This document shows positions 8,385 to 56,821 of a stretch of DNA of 64,000 nucleotides, piece by piece. Positions within the stretch are counted from its first letter, which is position 1. Every line of letters starts with the position of its first letter. A program made the position numbers and the translations under genes. Source of the DNA: an uncultured Candidatus Saccharibacteria bacterium (GTDB lineage: Bacteria; Patescibacteriota; Minisyncoccia; UBA6257; UBA9933); contig CAYRXZ010000001.1 of assembly GCA_964428615.1 (NCBI GenBank), positions 2,334 to 66,333 on the forward strand, in the 5' to 3' direction. Under the pieces are notes generated by a model that saw nothing but the letters and a program-made list of their open reading frames with translations, was not told where the DNA came from and did not search any database.

Positions 8385-11300
8385 TCAAATCTTTTTAATC
8401 CCCGCCCAAATTGAGGAACCATTTATTTTAGTTTCGGCTTCCGCGTCAAATTTATCGGTCCGGTTAAAATAAACATTCTTTGCGGAAATTTTTTCTTTAA
8501 ATTCTTTAATATTCTTTTCTATTGCTGAACGGATTTCTACCGGGACTTCCAGCCATAAATCAATCTTATCTTTCGGCAAAAAACCAGCTTCCTTTCTTAT
8601 ATCCTGCATTGCTCTTGCCATTTCTCTTAATAATCCCTCTGCTTTTAATTCCGGAGTAATTTTTGTGTCCAATTCTATTTCTCCGCCGATTTTCAAATCA
8701 AAAATAATTTTTTTAACATTTATCTCATCTGCCAAAATTCCCAATAATTCTTTTTTATCCTTTAATTCTGAATTCTTAATTCTTAATTCTGAAAGCGGTT
8801 GCCTTACTTTAATTCCTCTATTGCCCCTTAATTCCAAAGCCGCTGAGGCAATTTTTCTAATTTCCACCATTGCCTCAATTAAATCTTTATCTATTAATTT
8901 TTTATCAACCTTCGGCCAATCTTCTAAGTGCACGCTTGCCGCTTGTCGCTTGCCGCTTGTCGCCAAAAAAATTCCCTCTGCCACAAACGGCGCGAATGGC
9001 GCAATAATTTTAGAAAACTCCGACAAAACATATTTTGTTGTTTCTATCGCAGCAAATTTATCACTGTCTTCCAATTTAAACCTTTCACGCGAACGTCGAA
9101 TATACCAAGTTGAAAAATCATCAACGAAACCGCTAAGCGGCCTGACCGCTTTGTCAATTTCATAATTCTCTAACGATTCCGAAACTTCCTGCTTTAATTG
9201 TTCCAACCGGGCAATAATCCATCTATCTAGAACATTTTTATTTGAAGCTTGAAGCTTGAAGCTTGAAGTTTTACTATCGGCGTACATCTCGTAAAATTTA
9301 TAAGTATTCCATAACCGCAATATTGTTTTTTTATAAACTTCATCCACGCCTTTTTCTGAAAAATTCAAATTTTCTCCCGCTACCACGGGAGAAGAAAGCA
9401 AATAAAGCCTCAAACTATCTGCGCCATATTTTGAAACAAGCTCCATTGGGTCAGGATAATTTTTCAATCGTTTGCTCATTTTTTGCCCATTTTCCGCCAA
9501 AATTATGCCATTAACAATAACGTTTTTGTAAGCCGGTTTATCAAACAAAGCTGTTGAGAGAACAAGTAATGTATAGAACCAACCACGGGTTTGGTCCATC
9601 CCCTCAGCGATAAATTCCGCCGGCACCGGAGAAAAATTATTCTTCGGCGTTGAAAACGGAAAATGCGATTGGCCGTAAGGCATTGAACCAGATTCAAACC
9701 AGCAATCAAAAACATCTTCTATTCTTTTCATTTTACTACCGCAACCGCAGATAAATTCCACTTTATCAATATACGGCCTGTGCAAATCAAGCTCAAAATT
9801 TTTATTATGCGGAAATGGAACAAATTTCAAATTTTTTATTTCTCCGGTTTTTATAAAATCTTTTTTATTTTCTCTTATCTTAATCGCCTTTTTGGCGCTT
9901 GCTCCTTCGGCGCCAGCGAAAAGCAGCCAAATCGGATATTCATGACTGATAATTAAAATATTTTTACCGGAATATTTTTTATCAATATCATAAATAAAAT
10001 CTGACATCCTATTTTTTAAATCAGTCAGGTTTTCACCTTTCGGAGCCGGCTTAACGAATTTTTCCTCGTAGGAAGAAAAATGTTCTCCATACTCTTTTAT
10101 TGACTTATTATTTAAATTACCTGTATTGACTTCTCTTAATCTTTTGTCGTAGAAAACCTTTTTAATCCCGAAATGCTTTGCCGCCATTCCCGCAGTTTCT
10201 TTTGTCCGAATAAAATCTGAACTATAAATCAAATCAATATTTTTTATCTTTTTTAGAGTATCAACAATTTCTTTTTTCCCTTTTTCTGTTAGATGGTGAC
10301 TGTTTTTATAATTTGAACTCGCAATACCAAATATATTATTTTCCGCTTGCCCATGCCTCATCACAAAATATTTATTACCCGAAGTTCCCGAATTTTTCTT
10401 TATTTCCTCAACCGAACCGACAACTTTTAATTTTCCGCATTTTTTACATTCCCAGACCGGGAGCGGCGACCCCCAAAAACGGCTTCTTGAAATCGCCCAG
10501 TCTCTCGCGTCTTTAAGCCACTGGCCAAAACGTCCATCTTTCACGTGTGCCGGCAGCCAGCTTATTTTCTGGTTATTTTTTATAAGCTTATCTTTAATCG
10601 CTGTCACCTTCACAAACCAAGAAGATGCCGCGTAATTCAAAAGCGGAGTTTCACAACGCCAGCAATGAGGATATGAGTGGACCACTTTTTCACAATTAAA
10701 AACTAAATTTTTTTCTGAAAGAAATTTTATTATTTTCTCATCGGTTTCTTTTGTATTCTCTCGCGGCTTTGCGCGCAAATTTGTAAAATTTTTAACTTCC
10801 TGTTTTAATTTTCCATTCATTCCGACATGCTGAATAAAAGGCAAATTAAGTTTTTGCCCTAATTCCATATCTTCCGCACCAAAAGCCGGAGCAATATGTA
10901 CAATACCCGTTCCTTCTTCAATATTCACAAAATCCGCCGGATAAATTTTCCATCCGTTTTCACGATCTTTTAATTTTTTATCCTGGCTGAAATAATCAAA
11001 AAGAGGCTTATAATTTTCCCCAACCAATTTATCTCCCTTAAACTTCTCTATAATTTCATACTTTTCTTTTACGGCGCCCAATCTTTCTTCCGCTAAAATA
11101 TATTTTTTGTTATCGAAAGTTTTTATTTTTATATAAGTAATTTTCGGGTTTACCGCCAAAGCCACATTCCCGGGCAAAGTCCAAGATGTCGTTGTCCAAG
11201 CCAAAACAAAAGTTTTCGGCTCGTCAATTAATTCAAATTTCAATGTTATCGCAAAATCTTCAATATTTTTATAGTTCTGGGTAACTTCAAAATTTGAGAG

Positions 11301-39053: not shown

Positions 39054-40925
39054 TTATTGATTAGGAGAATTTTGCTCTTTATTATCTTCATCACCCCCAT
39101 TGCTTTCATTGCCTTCTTTTTTTTCGGCATACATCGCTTGCCCTATTTTTTGAAGCTCTAAAGAAAGTTCGGAAGCGGCTGATTTTATTTCTTCAATATT
39201 CTGCGATTGATGAATTGAAGTTTTAAGTTTTTCAACTTTTTGATTTATAGAATCTTTAAGTTCGGCCGAAATTTTATCGCCAGCTTCGCTCACTGATTTT
39301 TCAGCTAGATAAACCGTCTGCTCGGCATGATTTTTTGCTTCTGCTAATTCTTTTTTCTGCCTATCTTCTTCGGAATGCGCCGCAGCTTCTTGTTTTAATT
39401 TTTCAACGTCTTCTTTTGAAAGCTGGGTTGAAGCTTCAATGCGAATTGATTGACTTTTACCGCTAGCTTTATCTTTTGCCGAAACATTCAAAATGCCATT
39501 AGCATCTATATCAAAAGAAACTTCAATTTGTGGAATGCCACGCGGAGAAGGCGGAACTCCGTCTAAAATAAATTTCGCCAAAGTTTTGTTATCTAAGGCC
39601 ATAGTGCGTTCGCCCTGTAGAATGTGAATTTCAACTGAAGTCTGATTGTCAGCCGCCGTTGAAAAAACCTGCGACTTTTGTGTCGGAATCGTTGTATTTT
39701 TTTCAAGAATCGGAGTAGCTACTCCGCCATATGTTTCAATGCCTAAAGTTAAAGGAGTAACATCTAAAAGTAAAACATCTTTTACATCGCCTTGAAAAAT
39801 TCCGGCTTGAATCGCAGCGCCGGCAGCAACAACCTCATCGGGATTAATTCCTTTATGCGGCTCTTTTCCAAAAAACTTTTTAACTGCTTCCTGAATGGCC
39901 GGCATTCTTGTCTGACCTCCAACCATTACTACTTCGTCTATTTCTGAAGGCTTAAAACCAGCTTCTTTAATTGTCTTTTCAACTAATTCAATTGAGCGTT
40001 CTATTTCAGCCTTAACAAGTTCTTCTAGTTTGGCGCGAGTAAATTTTAAAAGAAAATGTTTCGGCCCGGAAGTGTCAGAGGTTATATAGGGAAGATTTAT
40101 TTCACTTTCAAAGGCTGTTGAGAGCTCATGCTTGGCGCGTTCGGCCGCTTCTTTTAACCGCTGTAAAGCCAGTGGGTCACTCGAAATATCAATGCCTTCT
40201 TGTTTTTTATATTCTAAAACCAAGAATTCTATTATTTTTCTATCAAAATCATCTCCGCCCAAATGTGTATCTCCACCGGTAGCTTTTACTTCAACCGTTT
40301 CATCGCCGACTTCCAAAACAGAAATGTCAAAAGTCCCACCTCCAAAATCGTAAACCACAATCTGCTCATTTTTCTTTTTATTTAAACCGTATGCCAACGC
40401 TGCGGCTGTCGGTTCGTTTATTATTCTACGCACTTTCAGGCCGGCAATTTCTCCGGCATTTTTAGTTGCTTGTCTTTGAGAATCGTCAAAGTAAGCCGGA
40501 ACCGTAATAACCGCTTCTTCTATTTTTTCTCCAGTCTTCGCTTCAGCATCGGCTTTTAATTTTGCCAAAACCATAGCTGAAATCTCTTCCGGCTTGTACC
40601 ATCTGTCCGCCATTTTTATTTCCACTCCGCCAGTTGAAGATTTTTGAATATCAAAAGGAAGCCATGCCTTATCGCGCTGAACTTCTTTGTCTTCAAAATT
40701 GCGGCCAATCAACCGCTTAACCGAAGAAATTGTATTTTTAGGATTAACCACCGACTGTCTTTTTGCCAATAAGCCAACTAAGCGTTCGCTTGCCTTTGAA
40801 ATTGCGACTACAGAAGGCGTGGTACGGTTACCTTCGTGATTTTCTAAAATTTTCGGCTCGCCCGCTTCAATAATTGCCATCGCCGAATTTGTTGTTCCTA
40901 AATCTATTCCTAAAATTTTAGCCAT
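39054..40925 (-). CDS. dnaK: Chaperone DnaK (Hsp70)
   Basis: 623 aa; [27 protein letters not shown] Hsp70 signatures. Confidence 0.95.
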
Positions 40926-40948
40926 AGTAATTTATATTATTTTTTTTA

Positions 40949-41467
40949 TTATTTCGCTACTTTTACTCTTGCCGGTCTTATAATCTTACCGTGTAGAGAA
41001 TATCCTTTTTCGACCTCTTCAATTATTGTTCCTGAAGGTTTATCTGACTCAACTGACGCCACTGCTTCTTGTAAGCTTGGGTCAAACGGCTGACCGACTG
41101 ATATAATGACCCTTTCTAATCCACTAAGTCTCATTATGTCTTCCAGTTGTTGGCGTATCAAATAAAGCCCTTTTTGCATTTTTGATTCTTCATCACCTCC
41201 AAGTGTAACTAATGCTAAATCAAAACTGTCTAAAACCGTTATTAAATCTTTTACTATTACTTCGTTAGCGAATTTCACGATGGCTTCAAACCTTTTTGAC
41301 TCGTCTTTTTTATAATTTATAAGATCCGCTTTTGCTCGTTTCCAACCATCAAGGTATTCATCACGTTGTTTTTCGCAGTCGTAATCGCACGAACTGCATT
41401 CCGTCTGTACGTTGGACTCTTCTTTTTTTTCTTCCTTTTTATTTTCTTTTTTTATGTCGTTTTCCAT
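40949..41467 (-). CDS. grpE: Nucleotide exchange factor GrpE
   Basis: 172 aa; coiled-coil then GYSLHGKIIRPARVKVAK C-terminal GrpE block. Confidence 0.8.
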   Translation of the reverse strand: MENDIKKENKKEEKKEESNVQTECSSCDYDCEKQRDEYLDGWKRAKADLINYKKDESKRFEAIVKFANEVIVKDLITVLDSFDLALVTLGGDEESKMQKGLYLIRQQLEDIMRLSGLERVIISVGQPFDPSLQEAVASVESDKPSGTIIEEVEKGYSLHGKIIRPARVKVAK

Positions 41468-41510
41468 AATTCAAATTTTTTAATAATTTATAAAACAACT
41501 AACAAAACAA

Positions 41511-41538
41511 AGTATAACAACTCATTGACGATCGTCAA
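41511..41538 (-). promoter_or_regulatory. Putative sigma70-type promoter of grpE-dnaK-dnaJ embedded in operator palindrome (-35 TTGACG, 16 nt, -10 TATACT)
   Basis: Minus-strand read: TTGACGatcgtcaatgagttgtTATACT ~37 nt upstream of grpE ATG. Confidence 0.4.
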
Positions 41539-41550
41539 TAGTTTGTTATA
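41513..41550. promoter_or_regulatory. 38-bp near-perfect palindrome TATAACAA(C)T(C)ATTGACGATCGTCAATAGTTTGTTATA (operator candidate) between regulator gene and grpE
   Basis: 2 mismatches to perfect copy at 42164..42201; centred on GATC. Confidence 0.5.
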
Positions 41551-41562
41551 CTTCGCTAAATT

Positions 41563-42153
41563 TTAAAAATTAAGCATTTCGTCATCGTCGACCTCACCCA
41601 CTGTCATTAATTTTATACAATCATTTAATTTCCTAAAAAGAATTTCTTCATAAAAATCTTCTGCTAATGGACTTTTCCCCATGAAAACGCTTTTTTGAAT
41701 CGGCTTATATTCCAAAGAAATAAGCTGCCAGCGAAGCCAATTTCTGCCATCACGATTTTTTTCCGGTATATCAAACATTATTATTCTCCATTTGCCATCC
41801 CATTGCTCTTTTTCTTTTTCTTTTTCTTTAAAATTTTTTACGGCTCTTAAACCAAGGTTTGTTATCTGAAAACCTGTTTTCTTTTTTTCAACCAAACCCT
41901 TTTTTTGAAGCCGCCACAAAATAGTTCGAGCGCTTTCTTTTTTAAGATTTTTAAGCTCATCATAATAATCCCAAAAATCTTTTGTATCCATTACTCTTTG
42001 ATAGCTTTTTGCCAAACCTCTTTGGGGGCCAGCTAAAACTTCTGACAATGCTACCGCACCTCTTTCCGCCAAACCCAAAAGTAAAGCCATACCAGCCAAA
42101 CTAGTATTCATAGGTAAATCTCTTATTACTTGTTTTAATTGCTCTTTTTCCAT
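41563..42153 (-). CDS. PaaX-family-like winged-HTH transcriptional regulator (truncated, ~197 aa) at head of grpE-dnaK-dnaJ operon
   Basis: wHTH TILWRLQKKGLVEKKKTGFQITNLG resembles PaaX RTALFRLNKEGWLDVSRIGRRSFYSLSDKG; WDGKWRIIMFDIP matches PaaX WDGKWLLLL block; ORF-track start 42189 is a TTG inside the palindrome; ATG at 42153 preferred. Confidence 0.55.
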   Translation of the reverse strand: MEKEQLKQVIRDLPMNTSLAGMALLLGLAERGAVALSEVLAGPQRGLAKSYQRVMDTKDFWDYYDELKNLKKESARTILWRLQKKGLVEKKKTGFQITNLGLRAVKNFKEKEKEKEQWDGKWRIIMFDIPEKNRDGRNWLRWQLISLEYKPIQKSVFMGKSPLAEDFYEEILFRKLNDCIKLMTVGEVDDDEMLNF

Positions 42154-42163
42154 TCCAAAAAAG

Positions 42164-42201
42164 TATAACAAACTATTGACGATCGTCAATAGTTTGTTAT
42201 A
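42164..42201. promoter_or_regulatory. 38-bp perfect palindrome TATAACAAACTATTGACGATCGTCAATAGTTTGTTATA immediately upstream of PaaX-like regulator gene (autoregulatory operator candidate)
   Basis: Exact reverse-complement symmetry over 38 bp; contains TTGACG/TATACT promoter-like hexamers on both strands. Confidence 0.55.
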
Positions 42202-42302
42202 TTGGCTAATTTGTTAAAATATTTATCAAAGCACAATAATTTGTCAAAATGCCAGTCATCAAGTAAAATTATATTAGCTAATATAATTTTATAGTTAAAA
42301 AC

Positions 42303-45104: not shown

Positions 45105-45148
45105 AACAAAAGCCCATACTATCATATATGATAATATGGGCTTTTTAT
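45105..45148. terminator. Bidirectional rho-independent terminator (AGCCCATActatcatatatgataaTATGGGCT + T-run)
   Basis: Long hairpin between convergent dnaB (+) and pheT (-). Confidence 0.5.
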
Positions 45149-50058: not shown

Positions 50059-50544
50059 ATGACGAAATGGCTTAAAGAAAGATTACCCACACTACTCAAG
50101 GAAGTCCCTTCAGACTTTCAAATGAAATTTTCGGAAAAATCCGAAAACGATGAATTTATCGGAGCGCTTTCTCCAGGTCTCGTTAAAATGGCGAGACTTT
50201 TCGCATGGCTCAATAAAAAGCTCATTGAGGGCTACGAGACACGACTTAGGACCAAATGTGATAAAGAGAGTTCCCGAAACTTCACCCAGGAACAAATGGA
50301 AACGGAAAACGATATGGATGCGGTGAGAGCCAATATATTCACGTCCCTCTGGCACGAGTTGGGTATTTATCCACAAATACAAACATCTCTAAAAATGGAC
50401 AGAGGCGCTATTGTCGCTGTTGTGCCTAAAAAAATTCCTGATCGCGACGCTAAAGTTACGGTTAACGTCGTTCAGATTTCCGGACCATTGCCAAGTATCG
50501 CGGACATCATCAGTGAAATGACCAAGCCACACCTCAACTCTTAA
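50059..50544 (+). CDS. Hypothetical protein (GC-rich island)
   Basis: 161 aa; no recognised domain; followed by strong terminator. Confidence 0.35.
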   Translation: MTKWLKERLPTLLKEVPSDFQMKFSEKSENDEFIGALSPGLVKMARLFAWLNKKLIEGYETRLRTKCDKESSRNFTQEQMETENDMDAVRANIFTSLWHELGIYPQIQTSLKMDRGAIVAVVPKKIPDRDAKVTVNVVQISGPLPSIADIISEMTKPHLNS

Positions 50545-50559: not shown

Positions 50560-50606
50560 ACAGGCCGTCCTGTTTTTATAAACAGTTGCGGCCTTTTTTA
50601 TTTTTA
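50560..50606. terminator. Bidirectional rho-independent terminator (GGCCG..CTGTTTttatAAACAG..CGGCC + T6ATTTTT)
   Basis: Nested hairpin between convergent 50059..50544 (+) and giant gene (-, stop 50604). Confidence 0.5.
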
Positions 50607-53600
50607 TTCCCCAAAACCGATTTTTATATACCAATCTACGGCCGAATTGATATTTACCGAATCGTCTATATAGCTCCCAAAAGGAGAAACTTTTATAAAT
50701 ACCTGCCCCGATTCACCGCCGGAATAAACATCGCTTCCGCTAACCGCGCTCTGCCAAGAGTTTGAAAGTGAATCGCTATAAGAATGAAATGTATAACTTG
50801 AATTTTCCAAAACAAACCAATATTTAACTCCCGAGCTTAAAACAACGTTCGGCGAAAAGCTGAAAACCAAGTCGCGATTTTGCGGGTCGCCCGATAAACC
50901 TGAAATAGTCGAAGCTGAAATAAGGTTATTAAAATCCGGCTTATTCCCGTTATCACCAAAAACCGTAAGTTTTAAATTAAAACTCGCGCCACTATCTTGT
51001 GAATGTTTTACTTTTAAAATAACCTTATTAAATTCCAAGCTTTCTGCTAAAGTAATACTTTGAATATTTGCTGCGCTAATACCATTCCAATTCATTTGCC
51101 CAAAATTATTACTCCAACCGTCGTCAATTTCCTGAATTAGATTAAAATTAATTGGCGGGTATTCCCAATTTGTCGAAAGCGTTAATATTGAATAATTATT
51201 AAAATTATCTTTTACCATGACGCTTATTGAAAAACTTTCTCCAGGCGAAACGAATCTTGAAGTGCCTGTGGCGTTACCCGCCGAACCCCAGCTCTCGTCA
51301 TTGTATTTAATTTCGTAAACTAAAAGGCTATCCAGCGTATCGGCGTCCGTGGCTTTCGACCAAGAAAGGTTTAATTTGGAATTTACGCTATCAAAATTTT
51401 TGACGATTTCGCCATTAAAAATAGGGGTTTGACGTTTCGGTTCAATCCCAAAATAATATTTTGTTTTGTCCGTCGCGACCAATTGAAACTCCGGATTTAA
51501 ACCGTCAAAAGTCGGGATAGATGAAACAGAATAAAAAACAGCTGTCATAAAATCATTTTCATCAAGACTTAATTCCCCGCTTGATTTAACGGTTTTTATA
51601 ATAAAATGGTTGTCTTCCAATTGAGAAAAACTAAAAGACCTATTAACCGCGCCGCCAGGAAAACCGCTACAATTATTAATATCCGGCAAAATCAAAGAAT
51701 CCCCGCCTGTCCCGCCCGCGCATTGGCTATATCTTAACTCCAAAACATTAGTCAAATCATTCGGCCGCCAATAAGGATTATTTAAATCGTTTTTCGCGTC
51801 GCTATTCAAATAAAAAACTGCTATTTTCCACGTATTGCCCTTATTGAACAAATCCGGGATAAAAGGATATTGCTCGTAATACGCGTCTATCAAAATTTCG
51901 CTGTCTTGAGGACTTTGGTAAAAATATAAACCCGAAAAAAAACTCGGAATACTTATTGAAGAAGTCGCTTCGTCCGAACCAAAACCATCTTCATCAAACG
52001 CCTGAATAGAAAAATGGTAATCGCGGCCGACTTCGTTTATTGTAATTTTTTCCGTTGTTGATGTTGATTCCACTATTGGCAATGTCGCACTCGCATTACT
52101 AATATCAAAAATTTTATAAACTAAAGTTGAGGTGGCCCCTAAATAATCTTGCGATTCACTCCACTCAAAATTTAATTCCATTCTGCTTTGCGCGTATTGA
52201 ACGTTGAAATTTTCCGGTTTTGTCGGCGCAATTCTCGGCTCAGGCAAGCTTAAAGAATTTTGCGGATTAGGAATTTCGCGGGTGTCAAAATCCCCATCGC
52301 TATCGCTATCGCAACCGTTTCCGGAAAATTCTCCGCTCGATTGCGATCGAGCGCAAGCGTTATTTATCCACGCTTTTCGTTCTAAGCTCTGGTTTTCGCC
52401 GACAGAGGAATCATAAGAAATCGAATCTACTTCTCCGCCATTGTTATTAAACAAAAAGACAGTGCTTGAACTGTTAGACAACGAACTCGCCCTAACTATA
52501 TCCGCCGTAACGCTTCCAGTATAATTATTTAATCCTATCAAGAAAAATCCTTTGCTTTTTATCAAAATGTTATCTTCTTGTTTGGAACCGAATTTTGCCA
52601 AAAGCTTCGTTGATGTGGCATCGCCTGTTAAAATATTTAAAGAATAATTTGTCAGATCAATTTCGTTGTCTATTGGATTATATAATTCAATAAATTCTTT
52701 TCCTTCGTCGCTTCCTTGAGCATTAAAAAGAATTTCTGAAATTACAATATGATTTGCGCCCGCTAAAGAAACGGGGATGTTTGCCGTAACTGGAGTTGAG
52801 GAAACTCCTTGATTGTTGAAGACAACAAGACTTGTCTCATAACTCCCGAATCTTGAATAGATATGTGAAGCCACCGAACTTGAGGTGATTAATGTGCCGC
52901 CATCTCCAAAGCTCCACTCATAAGAAATAATTTGCCCATTAGAGTCAGTTGAAGAAGCGGCATTGAAATTTACAACTTGCCAGGCCTGGGGGCTCTCTGG
53001 AGAATAAACAAAAAAGGCGCTGGGCGCCTGATTTGACTGGCTTGTTTGAAGATTTTTGATTTTAAAATCGTTAGAATTGTTGTCTGTATCGACAAACACG
53101 TTATTTTGCAACTTTCTTTCAATACTTTGGTTTTCCGTTGGTTCCAGAGCACAAGAACTCTCGCAATCACTGGAATTGCCCCAACCAACTTTATCCACAA
53201 CATCACCGTTAGAATTTTTTATCTGAATAGAATTCGCCTCTGTAAGCGTTAGGCTGTCCAAGAAAATATCGGCATTCATATCTGAACGTGAAATTAAGAA
53301 AAAACTTTTTGCCGAAATTATTTTATTTTCAAAATAAGTTTTTGAAACGAGCGAAGAAAAAGAACTGCCAGTTTTAGTTTTTCTTTGAATATACCAATTA
53401 GTTAAGTTAATAGCTGAATCGTTTGGGTTATAAAGCTTAATAAATCTGTTCCCGGTTGGAGAAATTTGAACTTCGTTTATTAAAATTTTTATTACGTTTG
53501 ATTGCTGATTTTGATTTACTGATCCGCCACCAAAATAAACTGTTTGCACGGGCGCCGATGCCGTTGAATTTTCCGCTTTCGGCGTTCCATTCACAACACT

Positions 53601-55487
53601 TGAAGTGTACCAATTAAAACCGCTTGCGTCGCGCTCCATTGTTTTTCTTTCGCTACTGTTTCCGGCGGGCCAATCGAGATTCGCCAAAACTTCGTCAATC
53701 AAATTGCATTGGCTATCAAAAAGCCTCAAGCCTTCGTTTGTGTTTGAAAGCGCGCCGCTATAAATTAAATCAGCTTTTATGTTTTGAACCGAATTATCAT
53801 CCGTTCTTTCAAATAAAAGAAGCTTGTTTGCTCCGATAATTTTGCTTCCATTGATGGAACCAAAATTTATTTTTATTTGTTCATCTTTATCTATTAATTG
53901 CCAATTACCAACATCTACGTTTCCGCCAGAAATATTTTTCAACTCAATCCATTCATCGCTAGCGCTGTTTAAAGTCCCCATCCAAGCAACCTCATTAATA
54001 ATGATTTTTTGACGTGAAGGGGTTTGATTAGTAATAAAAGAGCATTGTCTTACTGTCACGACCGGCGTTATTCTATTATTATCTTCGTTGTCATCAAGTT
54101 TATTTTCTAAATCTTGCTCTATATTTATCTCATCATCTTTTTCATTTTGAATAACTTCATTCTCTTGAATTTCTTGAACAATTTCTTCTTTTACTGGTTT
54201 TTGTATTAATTCTTTTTGTATTATTTTTGAATTATCGATTTTATCTTTTTCTATGGATTTAATATCGATGTTTTGATTTTTGTTTTCATTTTGATTTAAA
54301 TCTATTTGTTCCACTTGTTCAAAATTATTATCCGAGTTAAAAATACCTGTTAAAAATTTATTCGCCGAAGAAACTATTCCACTTGCCGTCGAGCCGACTT
54401 GAGCCATAAAATTTCCAACTGTTTCCACAGCATTACCGATGACCGACCTTTCTTCAGCAGTATTAAAATTCGGATCATTTTTCGCTTTTTCAACTTCTTG
54501 GAAGAATAGATTTATCACACCGGCGCCATATTGAACGGATTTTGTGGAGAGGCGGGACCAGTAGTCGGACATTACTCTCTCATCTCCTATATTAATAACA
54601 CCTTTAATGTCTATTAAAACACTTGATTGAACGGGTTGTGCCGATAATTTATAAAATCCATCATCATCTTTGCCTAATTTAAATAAAATGTCATCTATTT
54701 TTTCATAAGTAATTGATTCTGGTAATTCATAACCGCTCTGAACGCCAATTGTATCTTTGCTATAAAAATTACTATTTGAATATTTTGCCAGTTGATCAAA
54801 ATAAGAATTCAAGTCTGATAAAACAACAGGAGTTTTATTGATTAATCTGGTGCCTAAATTTTTATCAGAATTACTTAAATTAAATTGCTCTGCATACATT
54901 TCATAAGGACTACCCGTAGCGTGTGGATCATTCCTTGTGTGATCTGGGACAGCCTTGTCTTCAATTAAATGTAAAATGTGGCCAAGCGTAAACATTGCTT
55001 TTTCTTTTTCGCCTTGAACATAAAATTTAATTGCTCTTTGCCACGTAAAATCAGTTTCGCTTGTTAAAGCGCTAATCGCTCTTTGTTGAATAGCGGTTAA
55101 AACTGAAGCAATGGCGGTTGGAACTTTATAAGTTAAACTATTTTGATTATTGCTGTCTTGCGCCCAATTTTTAGATTTTTGCCAATTTCCCAAATTGTAA
55201 AGAGGGTCAATAGAGGGATCGCGAGTAAGACCCTTGTCTTTAATTGGGTCATAAAAATGATTCATCCAACGGGGAATATCATCTTCGCGCCGAGAGCCGT
55301 CTAAAAGATAAGGAACTAAATCATCAGAAATTTTATTGTTTGAGAAATTCTGATTGTAAAATTTAATAATTTCATCAGTTAAAAAAGTATGTGTTTCTAC
55401 ATTGTAAGCAAAAACATTGCTAAAATTAATAATAAAAAATCCCAATATTAAAATTGAGATTATTTTTATAAGCTTTCTATTTTCCAT
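50604..55487 (-). CDS. Giant exported surface protein: N-terminal zinc-dependent phospholipase-C-like domain, three lamin-tail domains (LTD), PKD domain, C-terminal beta-rich region
   Basis: 1627 aa; N-term TM; WMNHFYDP and HILHLIEDKAVPDHTRNDPHA (Zn-PLC-like); LTD motifs IINEVAWMGT...SDEWIELKN, ILINEVQISPTGNRFIKLYNP, IVISEILFNAQGSDEGKEFIELYNP; PKD WSFGDGG. Confidence 0.7.
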   Translation of the reverse strand: MENRKLIKIISILILGFFIINFSNVFAYNVETHTFLTDEIIKFYNQNFSNNKISDDLVPYLLDGSRREDDIPRWMNHFYDPIKDKGLTRDPSIDPLYNLGNWQKSKNWAQDSNNQNSLTYKVPTAIASVLTAIQQRAISALTSETDFTWQRAIKFYVQGEKEKAMFTLGHILHLIEDKAVPDHTRNDPHATGSPYEMYAEQFNLSNSDKNLGTRLINKTPVVLSDLNSYFDQLAKYSNSNFYSKDTIGVQSGYELPESITYEKIDDILFKLGKDDDGFYKLSAQPVQSSVLIDIKGVINIGDERVMSDYWSRLSTKSVQYGAGVINLFFQEVEKAKNDPNFNTAEERSVIGNAVETVGNFMAQVGSTASGIVSSANKFLTGIFNSDNNFEQVEQIDLNQNENKNQNIDIKSIEKDKIDNSKIIQKELIQKPVKEEIVQEIQENEVIQNEKDDEINIEQDLENKLDDNEDNNRITPVVTVRQCSFITNQTPSRQKIIINEVAWMGTLNSASDEWIELKNISGGNVDVGNWQLIDKDEQIKINFGSINGSKIIGANKLLLFERTDDNSVQNIKADLIYSGALSNTNEGLRLFDSQCNLIDEVLANLDWPAGNSSERKTMERDASGFNWYTSSVVNGTPKAENSTASAPVQTVYFGGGSVNQNQQSNVIKILINEVQISPTGNRFIKLYNPNDSAINLTNWYIQRKTKTGSSFSSLVSKTYFENKIISAKSFFLISRSDMNADIFLDSLTLTEANSIQIKNSNGDVVDKVGWGNSSDCESSCALEPTENQSIERKLQNNVFVDTDNNSNDFKIKNLQTSQSNQAPSAFFVYSPESPQAWQVVNFNAASSTDSNGQIISYEWSFGDGGTLITSSSVASHIYSRFGSYETSLVVFNNQGVSSTPVTANIPVSLAGANHIVISEILFNAQGSDEGKEFIELYNPIDNEIDLTNYSLNILTGDATSTKLLAKFGSKQEDNILIKSKGFFLIGLNNYTGSVTADIVRASSLSNSSSTVFLFNNNGGEVDSISYDSSVGENQSLERKAWINNACARSQSSGEFSGNGCDSDSDGDFDTREIPNPQNSLSLPEPRIAPTKPENFNVQYAQSRMELNFEWSESQDYLGATSTLVYKIFDISNASATLPIVESTSTTEKITINEVGRDYHFSIQAFDEDGFGSDEATSSISIPSFFSGLYFYQSPQDSEILIDAYYEQYPFIPDLFNKGNTWKIAVFYLNSDAKNDLNNPYWRPNDLTNVLELRYSQCAGGTGGDSLILPDINNCSGFPGGAVNRSFSFSQLEDNHFIIKTVKSSGELSLDENDFMTAVFYSVSSIPTFDGLNPEFQLVATDKTKYYFGIEPKRQTPIFNGEIVKNFDSVNSKLNLSWSKATDADTLDSLLVYEIKYNDESWGSAGNATGTSRFVSPGESFSISVMVKDNFNNYSILTLSTNWEYPPINFNLIQEIDDGWSNNFGQMNWNGISAANIQSITLAESLEFNKVILKVKHSQDSGASFNLKLTVFGDNGNKPDFNNLISASTISGLSGDPQNRDLVFSFSPNVVLSSGVKYWFVLENSSYTFHSYSDSLSNSWQSAVSGSDVYSGGESGQVFIKVSPFGSYIDDSVNINSAVDWYIKIGFGE

Positions 55488-56020
55488 ACGCCAGAAATCT
55501 CATTAAATTCTAAATCAATATAGGCTTTTAATTCTCCGTTTTCGCGTACAGCAAATTTAAAATCTTTATCATACGCACGAGCCTTTATATCAGGTTTTGC
55601 TTTTAATAATAAATCTGCCACTTCTTGCAACTCGCCTGCTTGTTTGGTTTTTTCTAATCCTTCTAACCATTTTGGATCAATACTCCCATCTGATCTCAAC
55701 ATAAAATATTTACTCGCCAATTCCACATCATCTTTTTTTAGAGCATCAATAAACATTTTCAACGTTTCTTCCGGTGTTTTACCTCCATAAATGTCGTTTT
55801 TCATTGCCTCCTCAAAATCTTCCCGCCAATCAAGATATTTTTCGTAATTTTCCTGATTCTGCCTATCTAATTTCGCCTGCGGGCTCAAGTATTTATCCCA
55901 AACAAAATACCCGCCCGCGAATAAAATGATTATTGCCAAAAACCCAACAACAAACTTCCAATATTTATTTTTATTCTTCGACGCATCCGGCGGATTAGAT
56001 AAAAAATTTTGCTCTTCCAT
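55466..56020 (-). CDS. Hypothetical membrane-anchored protein co-transcribed with giant surface protein
   Basis: ORF 55466..56065; probable ATG MEEQNF at 56020; one TM then soluble domain; 22-nt overlap with downstream giant gene. Confidence 0.35.
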   Translation of the reverse strand: MEEQNFLSNPPDASKNKNKYWKFVVGFLAIIILFAGGYFVWDKYLSPQAKLDRQNQENYEKYLDWREDFEEAMKNDIYGGKTPEETLKMFIDALKKDDVELASKYFMLRSDGSIDPKWLEGLEKTKQAGELQEVADLLLKAKPDIKARAYDKDFKFAVRENGELKAYIDLEFNEISGVWKIESL

Positions 56021-56121
56021 AATTTTAAAATTTTTATAAAAATAAAAGAGGGATCGCTCCCTCACTAGCTTTAATATTATTATAACAAATTTGTTTCCAT
56101 AAAAATGTGGATAACTTATTC

Positions 56122-56159
56122 TTGCTTAAAGTGCACGCTATAGCGTATACTTTAAGCAA
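56122..56159. promoter_or_regulatory. 38-bp near-perfect palindrome TTGCTTAAAGTGCACGCTATAGCGTATACTTTAAGCAA in divergent promoter region (operator candidate)
   Basis: 2 mismatches to perfect copy at 56784..56821; contains TTGCTT-18-TATACT promoter-like spacing toward 56186 gene. Confidence 0.5.
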
Positions 56160-56185
56160 GACTTATTAAGTATAAATTGTAACAA

Positions 56186-56761
56186 ATGAGAATAACAAAA
56201 CATTGGAAGATTAACAACCTGACTAAAGATACTTTGTTAAAATTAGCTCTCGGAGGAGCGTTTATTTTAGTTTCTATTTCATCTCCATATTTTTTAAATC
56301 AAGTAGCTAAAAATTATTTTAAAGAAAAAAGCAAAAAAGCTGCATATGCACGGGCTAAAAGACTAGGCGAATTGGAAAAGAAAAAAATTATTTCATTCAA
56401 AGAGTCTAGTAACAACAAAATTAAAATAGAACTCACACATAAAGGAAAATTATTAGTAAGAGAATACAATCTAGATAATTTAAAATTAAATAAACCGAAA
56501 GTGTGGGATAAAAAATGGAGAATATTTATGTATGATATTCCCGACTATCACAAAAAAGCTCGGGATGCTTTTAGATTTAAAATAAAACAGCTCGGCTTAT
56601 ACCCACTCCAAAAAAGCGTTTGGATATCACCTTATGATTGTACGCCAGAGATTGAATTTCTTTGCGCTGTTTTTGATATAGACATTAATAGCCATGTTTA
56701 TCAACTAACAACAACTCAAATTCCAAAAGAACGAGAAGTTAAAAAGTGGTTTGATTTATAG
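56186..56761 (+). CDS. PaaX-family-like wHTH transcriptional regulator, paralog 2
   Basis: 191 aa; WDKKWRIFMYDIP...LGLYPLQKSVWISP parallels WDGKWRIIMFDIP...LEYKPIQKSVFMGKSP of 41563..42153 protein and PaaX WDGKWLLLL block. Confidence 0.55.
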   Translation: MRITKHWKINNLTKDTLLKLALGGAFILVSISSPYFLNQVAKNYFKEKSKKAAYARAKRLGELEKKKIISFKESSNNKIKIELTHKGKLLVREYNLDNLKLNKPKVWDKKWRIFMYDIPDYHKKARDAFRFKIKQLGLYPLQKSVWISPYDCTPEIEFLCAVFDIDINSHVYQLTTTQIPKEREVKKWFDL

Positions 56762-56783
56762 ATATATAATAGATTTTCATATC

Positions 56784-56821
56784 TTGCTTAAGGTATACGC
56801 TATAGCGTATACCTTAAGCAA
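56784..56821. promoter_or_regulatory. 38-bp perfect palindrome TTGCTTAAGGTATACGCTATAGCGTATACCTTAAGCAA downstream of regulator paralog 2
   Basis: Exact 38-bp dyad; second copy of the operator-like element bracketing the gene. Confidence 0.5.

Follow-up and report, generated by a model that had tools for sequence, protein, structure and literature searches.

Paired gene-specific dyads around a PaaX-like regulator gene in a Saccharibacteria contig: a probable autorepressor and its predicted operators

Why does a small regulator gene lie between two copies of nearly the same long palindrome? The question is raised by a 64,000-nt stretch (the window; G+C 35.8%; coordinates are positions in it unless a locus is named) of contig CAYRXZ010000001.1 of an uncultured Candidatus Saccharibacteria bacterium, in which a gene for a PaaX-like protein at 56186..56761, labelled W2, is bracketed by two dyads (Table 1). 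A paralog at 41563..42153 (paralog 1) is bracketed by a dyad differing from that of W2. Related loci and contigs compared with the window are designated by L-numbers.

W2 is probably a dimeric PaaX-like repressor binding its own ~38-40-bp dyad, with the upstream copy serving autorepression and the downstream copy serving as an auxiliary operator. The dyads, their conservation in the family, protein-DNA covariation, promoter-like asymmetry of the two copies and synteny were observed, and from them we infer binding, repression and looping or a roadblock.

Dyads at W2 and across the family

The downstream 38-bp palindrome (TTGCTTAAGGTATACGCTATAGCGTATACCTTAAGCAA) was perfect and started 22 nt past the W2 stop codon; as a repeat common with the upstream copy, the downstream dyad was 40 nt long. 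The upstream copy ended 26 nt 5' of the W2 ATG, spanned 42 nt counting the outer TC/GA, and had two unpaired positions as a palindrome (GTGCAC vs. GTATAC). The two copies, 662 bp apart, differed at four positions (90% identity over 40 nt), one difference being a symmetric G:C to A:T exchange. Four half-sites were present in the dyads and none elsewhere in the window (0.01 expected from shuffles). Coordinates agreed with the first-pass annotation of the window, and so did its count of two mismatches when taken within the upstream palindrome, whereas against the downstream copy the count is four. The annotation had also described sequence blocks shared by W2 and paralog 1 (WDxKWRI..DIP..QKSV, 43% identical over 42 aa) and the same dyad-gene-dyad layout, with a gene-specific sequence, for both regulators; dyads were indeed found at both ends of paralog 1.

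Further dyads next to PaaX-like genes were sought in eighty loci from species-representative genomes and in further contigs fetched by exact protein match. A dyad was called at 13 or more of 18 pairs, a threshold reached by 6.7% of random windows. Dyads were present at both ends of 55 of 82 family genes and at one end of 16 more, and the density of long dyads within ~160 bp of either end of a family gene was 27 times that in the rest of these loci. The annotation's proposal of a family of regulators with twin gene-specific dyads therefore held family-wide. The two copies were related (at least 69% identical) in 47 loci, and paired dyads were spaced 619-826 bp centre to centre. Several family paralogs occurred per genome, each with its own dyad.

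Outer arms varied from gene to gene, even in tandem paralogs ~70% identical (L072). The centre-aligned logo showed a common core across otherwise unrelated dyads, with G(-4) C(-3) N A(-1) to the left of the centre and T N G C to its right. Close W2 orthologs (80-88% identity) had both dyads in the same places and kept the inner ACGCTATAGCGT, and their outer arms had changed in concert in both copies (TTGCTTAAAGTAT, TTTGACAAATTCT, TTGATAAGCGTAC). The dyads thus persisted in the loci of close relatives, where their absence would, according to the annotation, have refuted its proposal.

Protein, predicted binding mode and promoter overlap

The W2 protein matched Pfam PaaX_M (PF20803, the central Cas2-like domain) with E 2.7e-20 and 72.7 bits (cut-off 24). 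It had no Pfam match to PaaX_C (PF08223), the chain stopping at residue 191, directly after the Cas2-like domain, and none to PaaX_N. The N-terminal region was nevertheless modelled by AlphaFold2 as helix-helix-helix-wing (helices 12-23, 36-43 and 50-65; wing 69-83) at a moderate predicted local distance difference test score (pLDDT 56-82), followed by a Cas2-like ferredoxin-fold domain at residues 111-188 with the invariant D117-I-P and Q142-K-S-V. The model was built on 62 homologs (mean pLDDT 78; C-terminal domain 83-95). Its best Foldseek match in the PDB was E. coli PaaX (8A39; 190 columns, E 2e-4), and the next matches were many Cas2 structures on the C-terminal domain (target-normalised template modelling score up to 0.63). 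Alignment of W2 with E. coli PaaX by hhalign (probability 89%) covered the last helix and the wing, and placed SEGL and APSL of PaaX where the W2 family keeps the Cas2 hallmarks YDIP and QKSV. The PaaX-like assignment made at annotation was supported in fold and in domain order by the Pfam, Foldseek and hhalign results.

Scores with NCBIfam models were below cut-off both for PaaX (TIGR02277; 16.5 vs. 264.55 bits) and for Cas2 (TIGR01573; 19.7 vs. 24.5 bits). PF09827 did not match W2, and PADLOC gave weak partial Cas2 matches only. The neighbours of W2 were the LTD operon and mnmA-efp, with no paa genes among them; no repeat-spacer CRISPR array was found in the window and no cas1 among the identified neighbour genes. 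Judged by its sequence, the W2 protein is of PaaX-like architecture and not a canonical PaaX (no PaaX_C, a score far under the cut-off, and no paa context), and it is not a member of Cas2 (sub-threshold score, no cas1, and no CRISPR array). Clustering at 50% identity gave 6278 family clusters at E <= 1e-3 and 4066 at E <= 1e-10; almost all of the proteins were 180-200 aa long. Named sources of its members were metagenome-assembled genomes (MAG) of Patescibacteria, the Candidate Phyla Radiation (CPR).

Covariation was calculated with 75 proteins, each paired with its best dyad. The strongest pair was core base -2 with the residue after the DIP motif, D120 in W2 (z 13.8; mutual information 1.0 bit), which is the first residue of helix alpha1 in the Cas2-like domain; the next signals linked K123, R126 and D127 with bases -2, -5 and -6. 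The core base was C with H/Q, G or T with E/D, and A with S/T/N (62 of 70 pairs), and this code switched inside a subclade ~70% identical (Q/C in L037 vs. E/T in L043 and E/G in L079). The code would match the usual major-groove chemistry if the residue contacted the base of the opposite strand. Outer bases -13 to -18 covaried with E62, K72, E73, S75, N77, K78 and I79, in the recognition helix and wing; covariation of recognition-helix residues with palindrome sequence across paralogs had been put forward at annotation as a check.

Each family protein most likely binds its own dyad over ~40 bp, a span known for E. coli PaaX, because residue 120 tracks the core base and residues of the wing and recognition helix track the outer arms. 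A dimer would lie along the dyad, its Cas2-like dimer over the centre and its winged helices on the distal arms, where they would contact the gene-specific bases about 13-18 positions from the centre. The N-terminus of alpha1, just past D-I-P, would read the core GC-N-A·T-N-GC (the dot marks the centre), with residue 120 setting its variable base. E. coli PaaX binds TGATTC-N27-GAATCA, a 39-bp site similar in span to the W2 dyads (PMC9493321). The beta1-alpha1 loop of Cas2 has been proposed as a DNA-recognition loop, and R16 of E. coli Cas2 clamps the protospacer duplex in Cas1-Cas2 (PMC10491678).

The upstream and downstream copies differed in their likeness to promoters. The promoter proposed for W2 (Table 1) was read from the sequence, and its 18-nt spacer holds the dyad core CGCTATAGCG. 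The promoter scan missed it, as its -35 hexamer TTGCTT matches at only 3/6 positions. The downstream dyad had TATACC at the matching place, without the final T of a -10 hexamer. Similar differences were found in orthologs, with the promoter hexamers in the same register in L081, L085, L099 and L100: TTGACA-17-TAGAAT upstream and TAGAAA downstream in L081, TATACT upstream and TGTACT downstream in L084, TTGACA in the upstream copy only in L099 and L100, and TTGACA-18-TATAAT upstream in L085, where the dyad core alone was retained. Among 50 loci, sense -10 hexamers (at least 5/6) occurred in 24 upstream copies vs. 11-15 in three other contexts, and perfect TATAAT in 11 upstream copies in the sense direction vs. 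2-4 in the other contexts.

Since the proposed promoter lies inside the upstream dyad, protein binding there would occlude it, which suggests that W2 is autorepressed through its predicted upstream operator. The protein, with its predicted winged helix and a Cas2 fold for dimerisation, would on the upstream dyad shut the W2 gene off, and may also influence the divergent operon of a small membrane protein and the giant LTD surface protein. The downstream dyad would bind the same protein, most likely as an auxiliary operator: looping between the two sites could bring about repression, by analogy with lambda OL/OR around cI, or the downstream dyad could be a roadblock insulating the small autoregulated gene from convergent mnmA transcription.

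Several observations weigh against a repressor acting on paired operators. No promoter is available to an operator placed, like the downstream one, between convergent genes, and its role is conjecture. Covariation was confounded by phylogeny, the sequences being non-independent, although the signals gathered in two structural elements, at those ends of the site where they would be expected. The family, unlike E. coli PaaX, keeps the catalytic Asp of Cas2 without exception: D117 aligned with the YDV Asp of 3EXC, a Sulfolobus Cas2-like RNase, and was invariant among the 62 sequences, whereas a mere dimerisation domain would not need a catalytic Asp. Between the upstream and downstream copies, 39 symmetry-preserving changes paired in both copies vs. 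~7 expected, and symmetric double changes numbered 74 vs. 21.7 expected. Four sites in L016 had the same outer arms and core, with spacers that differed yet were still palindromic. Such symmetric changes are not fully explained by simple half-site readout and hint at a hairpin or cruciform, or at a copying mechanism. Some dyads had no family gene close by; these orphans numbered ~10 in ~0.8 Mb of related loci (W2-type in L089-L092; others in L006, L020, L029 and L063), and the one in L025 belonged by sequence to L028, a paralog in the same MAG. Finally, a 48-bp family-type dyad (centre CTACGATCGTAG) lay in frame in mnmA of L030 (9383-9430 in the open reading frame 8952-10118).

Weighing of other explanations

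The annotation had allowed for a small selfish or mobile unit. In its fuller form, the dyads would be mobile or recombinogenic palindromes and the protein their cognate nuclease or mobilising factor, REP-RAYT- or integron-like, with an Asp pair cutting the dyad centre; dyad-bracketed units (the regulator, the LTD operon, a toxin-antitoxin pair) would be movable cassettes, and lone dyads empty sites or scars. This explanation is unlikely, even though several of the observations just listed are in its favour: the orphan dyads, the in-frame dyad in L030 mnmA and the excess of symmetry-preserving changes, as well as D117, which corresponds to an Asp pair at the Cas2 dimer interface (PMC10491678). 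The conserved central A-T step, the random orientation relative to neighbours, the occurrence of several paralogs per genome with a dyad each, and the bracketing by L016 dyads of a RelE module and a duplicated lepB fragment are also on its side. Conserved synteny opposes it. Between 88% and 41-49% identity, orthologous cassettes held their position and the promoter layout of the intergenic region, and the paralog 1 lineage stayed with chaperone genes; no genome showed two cassettes sharing identical dyads, neither dyad had an orphan copy in the 64-kb window, and no relatives were found in viral contigs (IMG/VR). The mnmA loop bore unrelated hairpin inserts in other lineages too, and we know of no Cas2 fold that catalyses strand transfer. 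The mobile-unit idea of the annotation was therefore weakly favoured by the orphans, the mnmA insert and the invariant Asp, and opposed by synteny. There is a slim chance that the Cas2-like domain works at the A-T centre as a nuclease or recombination factor that is active and guided by sequence, with bracketed units as excisable, duplicable and insertable cassettes of a REPtron- or integron-like kind.

It is very doubtful that the palindromes work at the RNA level, as 5' and 3' stem-loops for termination, RNase III-type processing or stabilisation of the transcript, with the protein incidental or RNA-binding. The copies fold at -24 to -28 kcal/mol (z -6 to -9), symmetry was kept at spacer positions, no canonical terminator was found between W2 and convergent mnmA, and downstream dyads between convergent genes were the most perfect (16.2 of 18 pairs). 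Against these points, U-tracts were absent and the family logo had no flanking A/T runs, mismatches on the sense strand showed no bias to G.U wobble, and the proposed promoter lies inside the upstream dyad, which would then not be transcribed from it. Neither the residue covariation nor the conserved core is predicted by a hairpin model, and Rfam gave spurious hairpin matches only (sub-threshold and similar to miRNA precursors, or a weak L20 leader). Intrinsic terminators, already considered unlikely at annotation, were rejected, there being no G+C-rich stem either; canonical terminators were present elsewhere in the window.

Equally improbable is that each dyad is the operator or promoter of the neighbour gene it faces, the bracketing of the regulator being a by-product. 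Points in its favour are that, at paralog 1, a TTGACG-16-TATACT in the downstream dyad is directed at grpE-dnaK and the upstream dyad is turned towards a cysS-like gene in divergent orientation, and that antisense -10 hexamers occurred in 7 of 17 upstream dyads with a divergent neighbour vs. 4 of 26. The downstream neighbour of W2, however, is convergent, and dyads occurred at 3' ends of LTD operons too. Orientation of neighbours was random across the family (21 co-directional and 19 convergent downstream; 26 co-directional and 17 divergent upstream), and promoter-likeness of the downstream dyad was independent of it (7/21 vs. 5/19). Bracketing is therefore a property of the cassette and not a matter of neighbour control, and the suggestion of the first-pass annotation that the dyads control neighbours bidirectionally was not upheld. 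A phage origin of the family was rejected on the IMG/VR result.

Neighbouring operons, paralog 1 and related systems

Table 1. Features of the W2 locus and related dyads (window positions unless a locus is named)
Feature	Position	Strand	Remarks
Upstream dyad	56120..56161; core 56122..56159	none	Proposed operator overlapping the W2 promoter; kept in orthologs
Proposed W2 promoter	56122..56151	+	-35 TTGCTT 56122-27; 18-nt spacer; -10 TATACT 56146-51; read from sequence
W2, PaaX-like gene	56186..56761	+	191 aa; predicted winged helix and Cas2-like ferredoxin-fold domain
Downstream dyad	56782..56821; perfect palindrome 56784..56821	none	Between the convergent stop codons of W2 and mnmA
Divergent-operon leader	56038..56087	-	Extended -10-like TGTTATAAT 56087..56079; hairpin GAGGGAgcgaTCCCTC and T-run 56063..56038
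Small membrane-protein gene	55466..56020	-	Likely start ATG 56020; first gene of the divergent operon
Giant LTD/PKD surface-protein gene	50604..55487	-	1627 aa; second gene of the divergent operon
Paralog 1 cassette	41510..42203	-	Dyad 42162..42203; gene 41563..42153; dyad 41510..41553; then grpE-dnaK
LTD-operon 3' dyads	L099 4188-4230, 4585-4627; L100 4428-4470; L010 226-255		
W2-type orphan dyads	L089 3779-3816; L090 5042-5079; L091 224-261		TTGCTTAAAGT..CGCTATAGCG..ACTTTAAGCAA; metagenome contigs

Giant LTD surface proteins are thought to mediate host attachment. The divergent pair of membrane-protein and LTD genes (LTD 1338-1644 aa) was kept in L098/L002 (64%), L099 (65%), L100 (54%) and L010 (49%), and LTD homologs divergently adjoined the regulator in L011 (45%), L016 (41%) and L085 (83%). 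The right-hand neighbours mnmA-efp were kept in the close clade only. Orthologs retained the intergenic region in detail, with the minus-strand TGTTATAAT, the leader hairpin with its T-run, the DnaA-box-like TGTGGATAAC and the dyad. An extra regulator dyad was present 25-80 bp past the LTD stop codon in L010, L099 and L100, where the layout was dyad, LTD operon, dyad, regulator, dyad. At its 3' end the LTD operon of the window had a canonical bidirectional terminator in place of a third dyad, and L098 too had a canonical terminator there.

These arrangements support a tie between the regulator and the giant surface-protein operon. The annotation had proposed that W2 may gate the operon: divergent synteny down to 41-49% identity and the third dyad in three loci were in its favour, whereas the operon seems to have an extended -10 of its own and a leader hairpin left of the dyad.

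The leader hairpin and T-run are terminator-like and only ~25 nt before the ATG of the small membrane-protein gene, and the hairpin could be an attenuator of the operon. That the W2 cassette had been inserted between mnmA and a displaced terminator at 56048-56063 was considered and dropped, as the hairpin is a conserved leader element in all orthologs. The two copies at the LTD end in L099 were 397 bp apart with no evident open reading frame between them. The perfect DnaA-box consensus TTATCCACA occurred three times in the window vs. 0.48 expected (56106-56114 on the minus strand, 50367-50375 and 53191-53199); most orthologs kept TGTGGATAAC as the box adjoining the upstream dyad, and L010 had it with one base substituted.

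Both dyads of paralog 1 carry their TTGACG-16-TATACT on the coding (minus) strand, one promoter facing the regulator gene and the other facing grpE-dnaK (39054-41467). The position of the former would, as predicted, give a nearly leaderless regulator mRNA. Orthologs of paralog 1 preceded grpE-dnaK(-dnaJ) in L093 and L096 and clpB in L094, all with twin dyads TGTAACA..(A/G)CGATCGT..TGTTACA (lineage form TGTAACA..ACGATCGT..TGTTACA). This position was counted in favour of a repressor because it is typical of one. No controlling inverted repeat of chaperone expression (CIRCE) was found in the window. Members of the paralog 1 lineage, which occupy the usual position of HrcA, are candidates for a heat-shock repressor that stands in for HrcA/CIRCE. 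They resemble HrcA/CIRCE and HspR with its associated inverted repeat (HAIR) in that the gene heads or adjoins grpE-dnaK-dnaJ or clpB and that inverted repeats, here predicted operators, lie at the promoters; they differ in belonging to an unrelated family and in their 38-42-bp dyad TATAACA..ACGATCGT..TGTTATA.

E. coli PaaX is an autoregulating repressor of phenylacetate catabolism, and the autorepression proposed for W2 would be alike. It is also the best structural match to W2 (8A39; TIGR02277), with a winged helix (predicted in W2) followed by the Cas2-like PaaX_M, and its operator of ~39 bp has symmetric distal half-sites. We know of no DNA complex of PaaX. Differences are that PaaX has 316 aa vs. 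191 aa in W2, which lacks the PaaX_C effector domain and the paa context and keeps the YDIP and QKSV lost in PaaX, and that in W2 the whole 38 bp are palindromic, the core is apparently read by the Cas2-like domain and the sites bracket the gene. W2 is like Cas2/VapD nucleases in how residues 111-188 fold, in the Asp that closes beta1 and in the QxSV strand, and the likeness extends to the proposed recognition loop and the R16 clamp; W2, however, scored under the Cas2 cut-off, has its Cas2-like domain fused to a predicted winged helix, has no cas1 or array, and its domain would apparently serve in sequence-specific reading of the dyad centre.

In the arrangement of its sites W2 may be compared with lambda CI, whose OL and OR flank cI-rex: in both, the repressor gene would lie between two operator regions for its own product, with a promoter overlapping the proximal operator. 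The fold is unrelated, and W2 has one long dyad per end, 0.66 kb apart, instead of a tripartite operator. The REP-RAYT system (REPtron; repetitive extragenic palindromes with their cognate transposase) is similar in that a gene is flanked by its own cognate palindromes, with paralog-specific palindrome families and occasional dispersed intergenic copies, some between convergent genes. It is different in that W2 has a predicted winged helix and a Cas2-like domain instead of the HUH/Y1 transposase fold, no W2 dyad was found beyond the pair in 64 kb, and cassettes were syntenic over long evolutionary distances.

To our knowledge, the genomes of Patescibacteria are tiny and hardly any of their transcription factors have been characterised, and the W2 family, which is large and has several paralogs per genome, may be among their main regulator families. 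The literature searched (PaaX with Cas2, CPR and palindromes) contained no account of this CPR family, of its paired dyads or of a Cas2-like domain that reads DNA; the W2 type would be a repressor of the PaaX kind whose operator architecture is new and in which the Cas2 fold takes on a new role. If so, regulons of uncultivated organisms would be predictable from sequence, because each operator flanks its own gene and one residue sets the core base; the paralog 1 lineage would be the likely heat-shock repressor of Patescibacteria, a regulator of giant LTD surface proteins would be pointed out, and the Cas2 fold would be a sequence-reading DNA-binding module, with a bearing on the mechanism of PaaX and the origin of Cas2. 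Were the nuclease or recombination explanation true instead, the family would be a previously unknown Cas2-fold system, or a relative of the state ancestral to the recruitment of Cas2 by CRISPR.

The orphans of L089-L091, found in convergent intergenic regions or 5' of a gene for an M16 peptidase, could be remote operators or empty sites; in the empty-site comparison, their flanking genes had no synteny to the window. The insert in L030 mnmA sits in a variable TGHY...KDQSYFL loop that is short (15 aa) in the window and L002, and the same loop had unrelated, hairpin-forming in-frame inserts in L001, L084 and L085. Four related dyads were found within 2 kb in L016 (4029-6062), two of them bracketing a RelE-like toxin/antitoxin pair and a duplicated 174-nt 3' fragment of lepB (signal peptidase), an arrangement that suggests rearrangement at dyads.

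Other palindromes were also noted. A G+C-rich 32-36-bp palindrome, CAACAGGCCTT.CTCGAG.AAGGCCTGTTG, was present near family genes in L043 (4813-4844), L055 (4841-4876) and L071 (906-941), and is probably a different element, since it is without the family core. A perfect 28-bp palindrome (TAAAATTATATTAGCTAATATAATTTTA) was found at 42264-42291, just upstream of the cysS-like open reading frame, and a terminator-like 38-bp dyad flanked by an A-run and a T-run at 45108-45145, between convergent genes.

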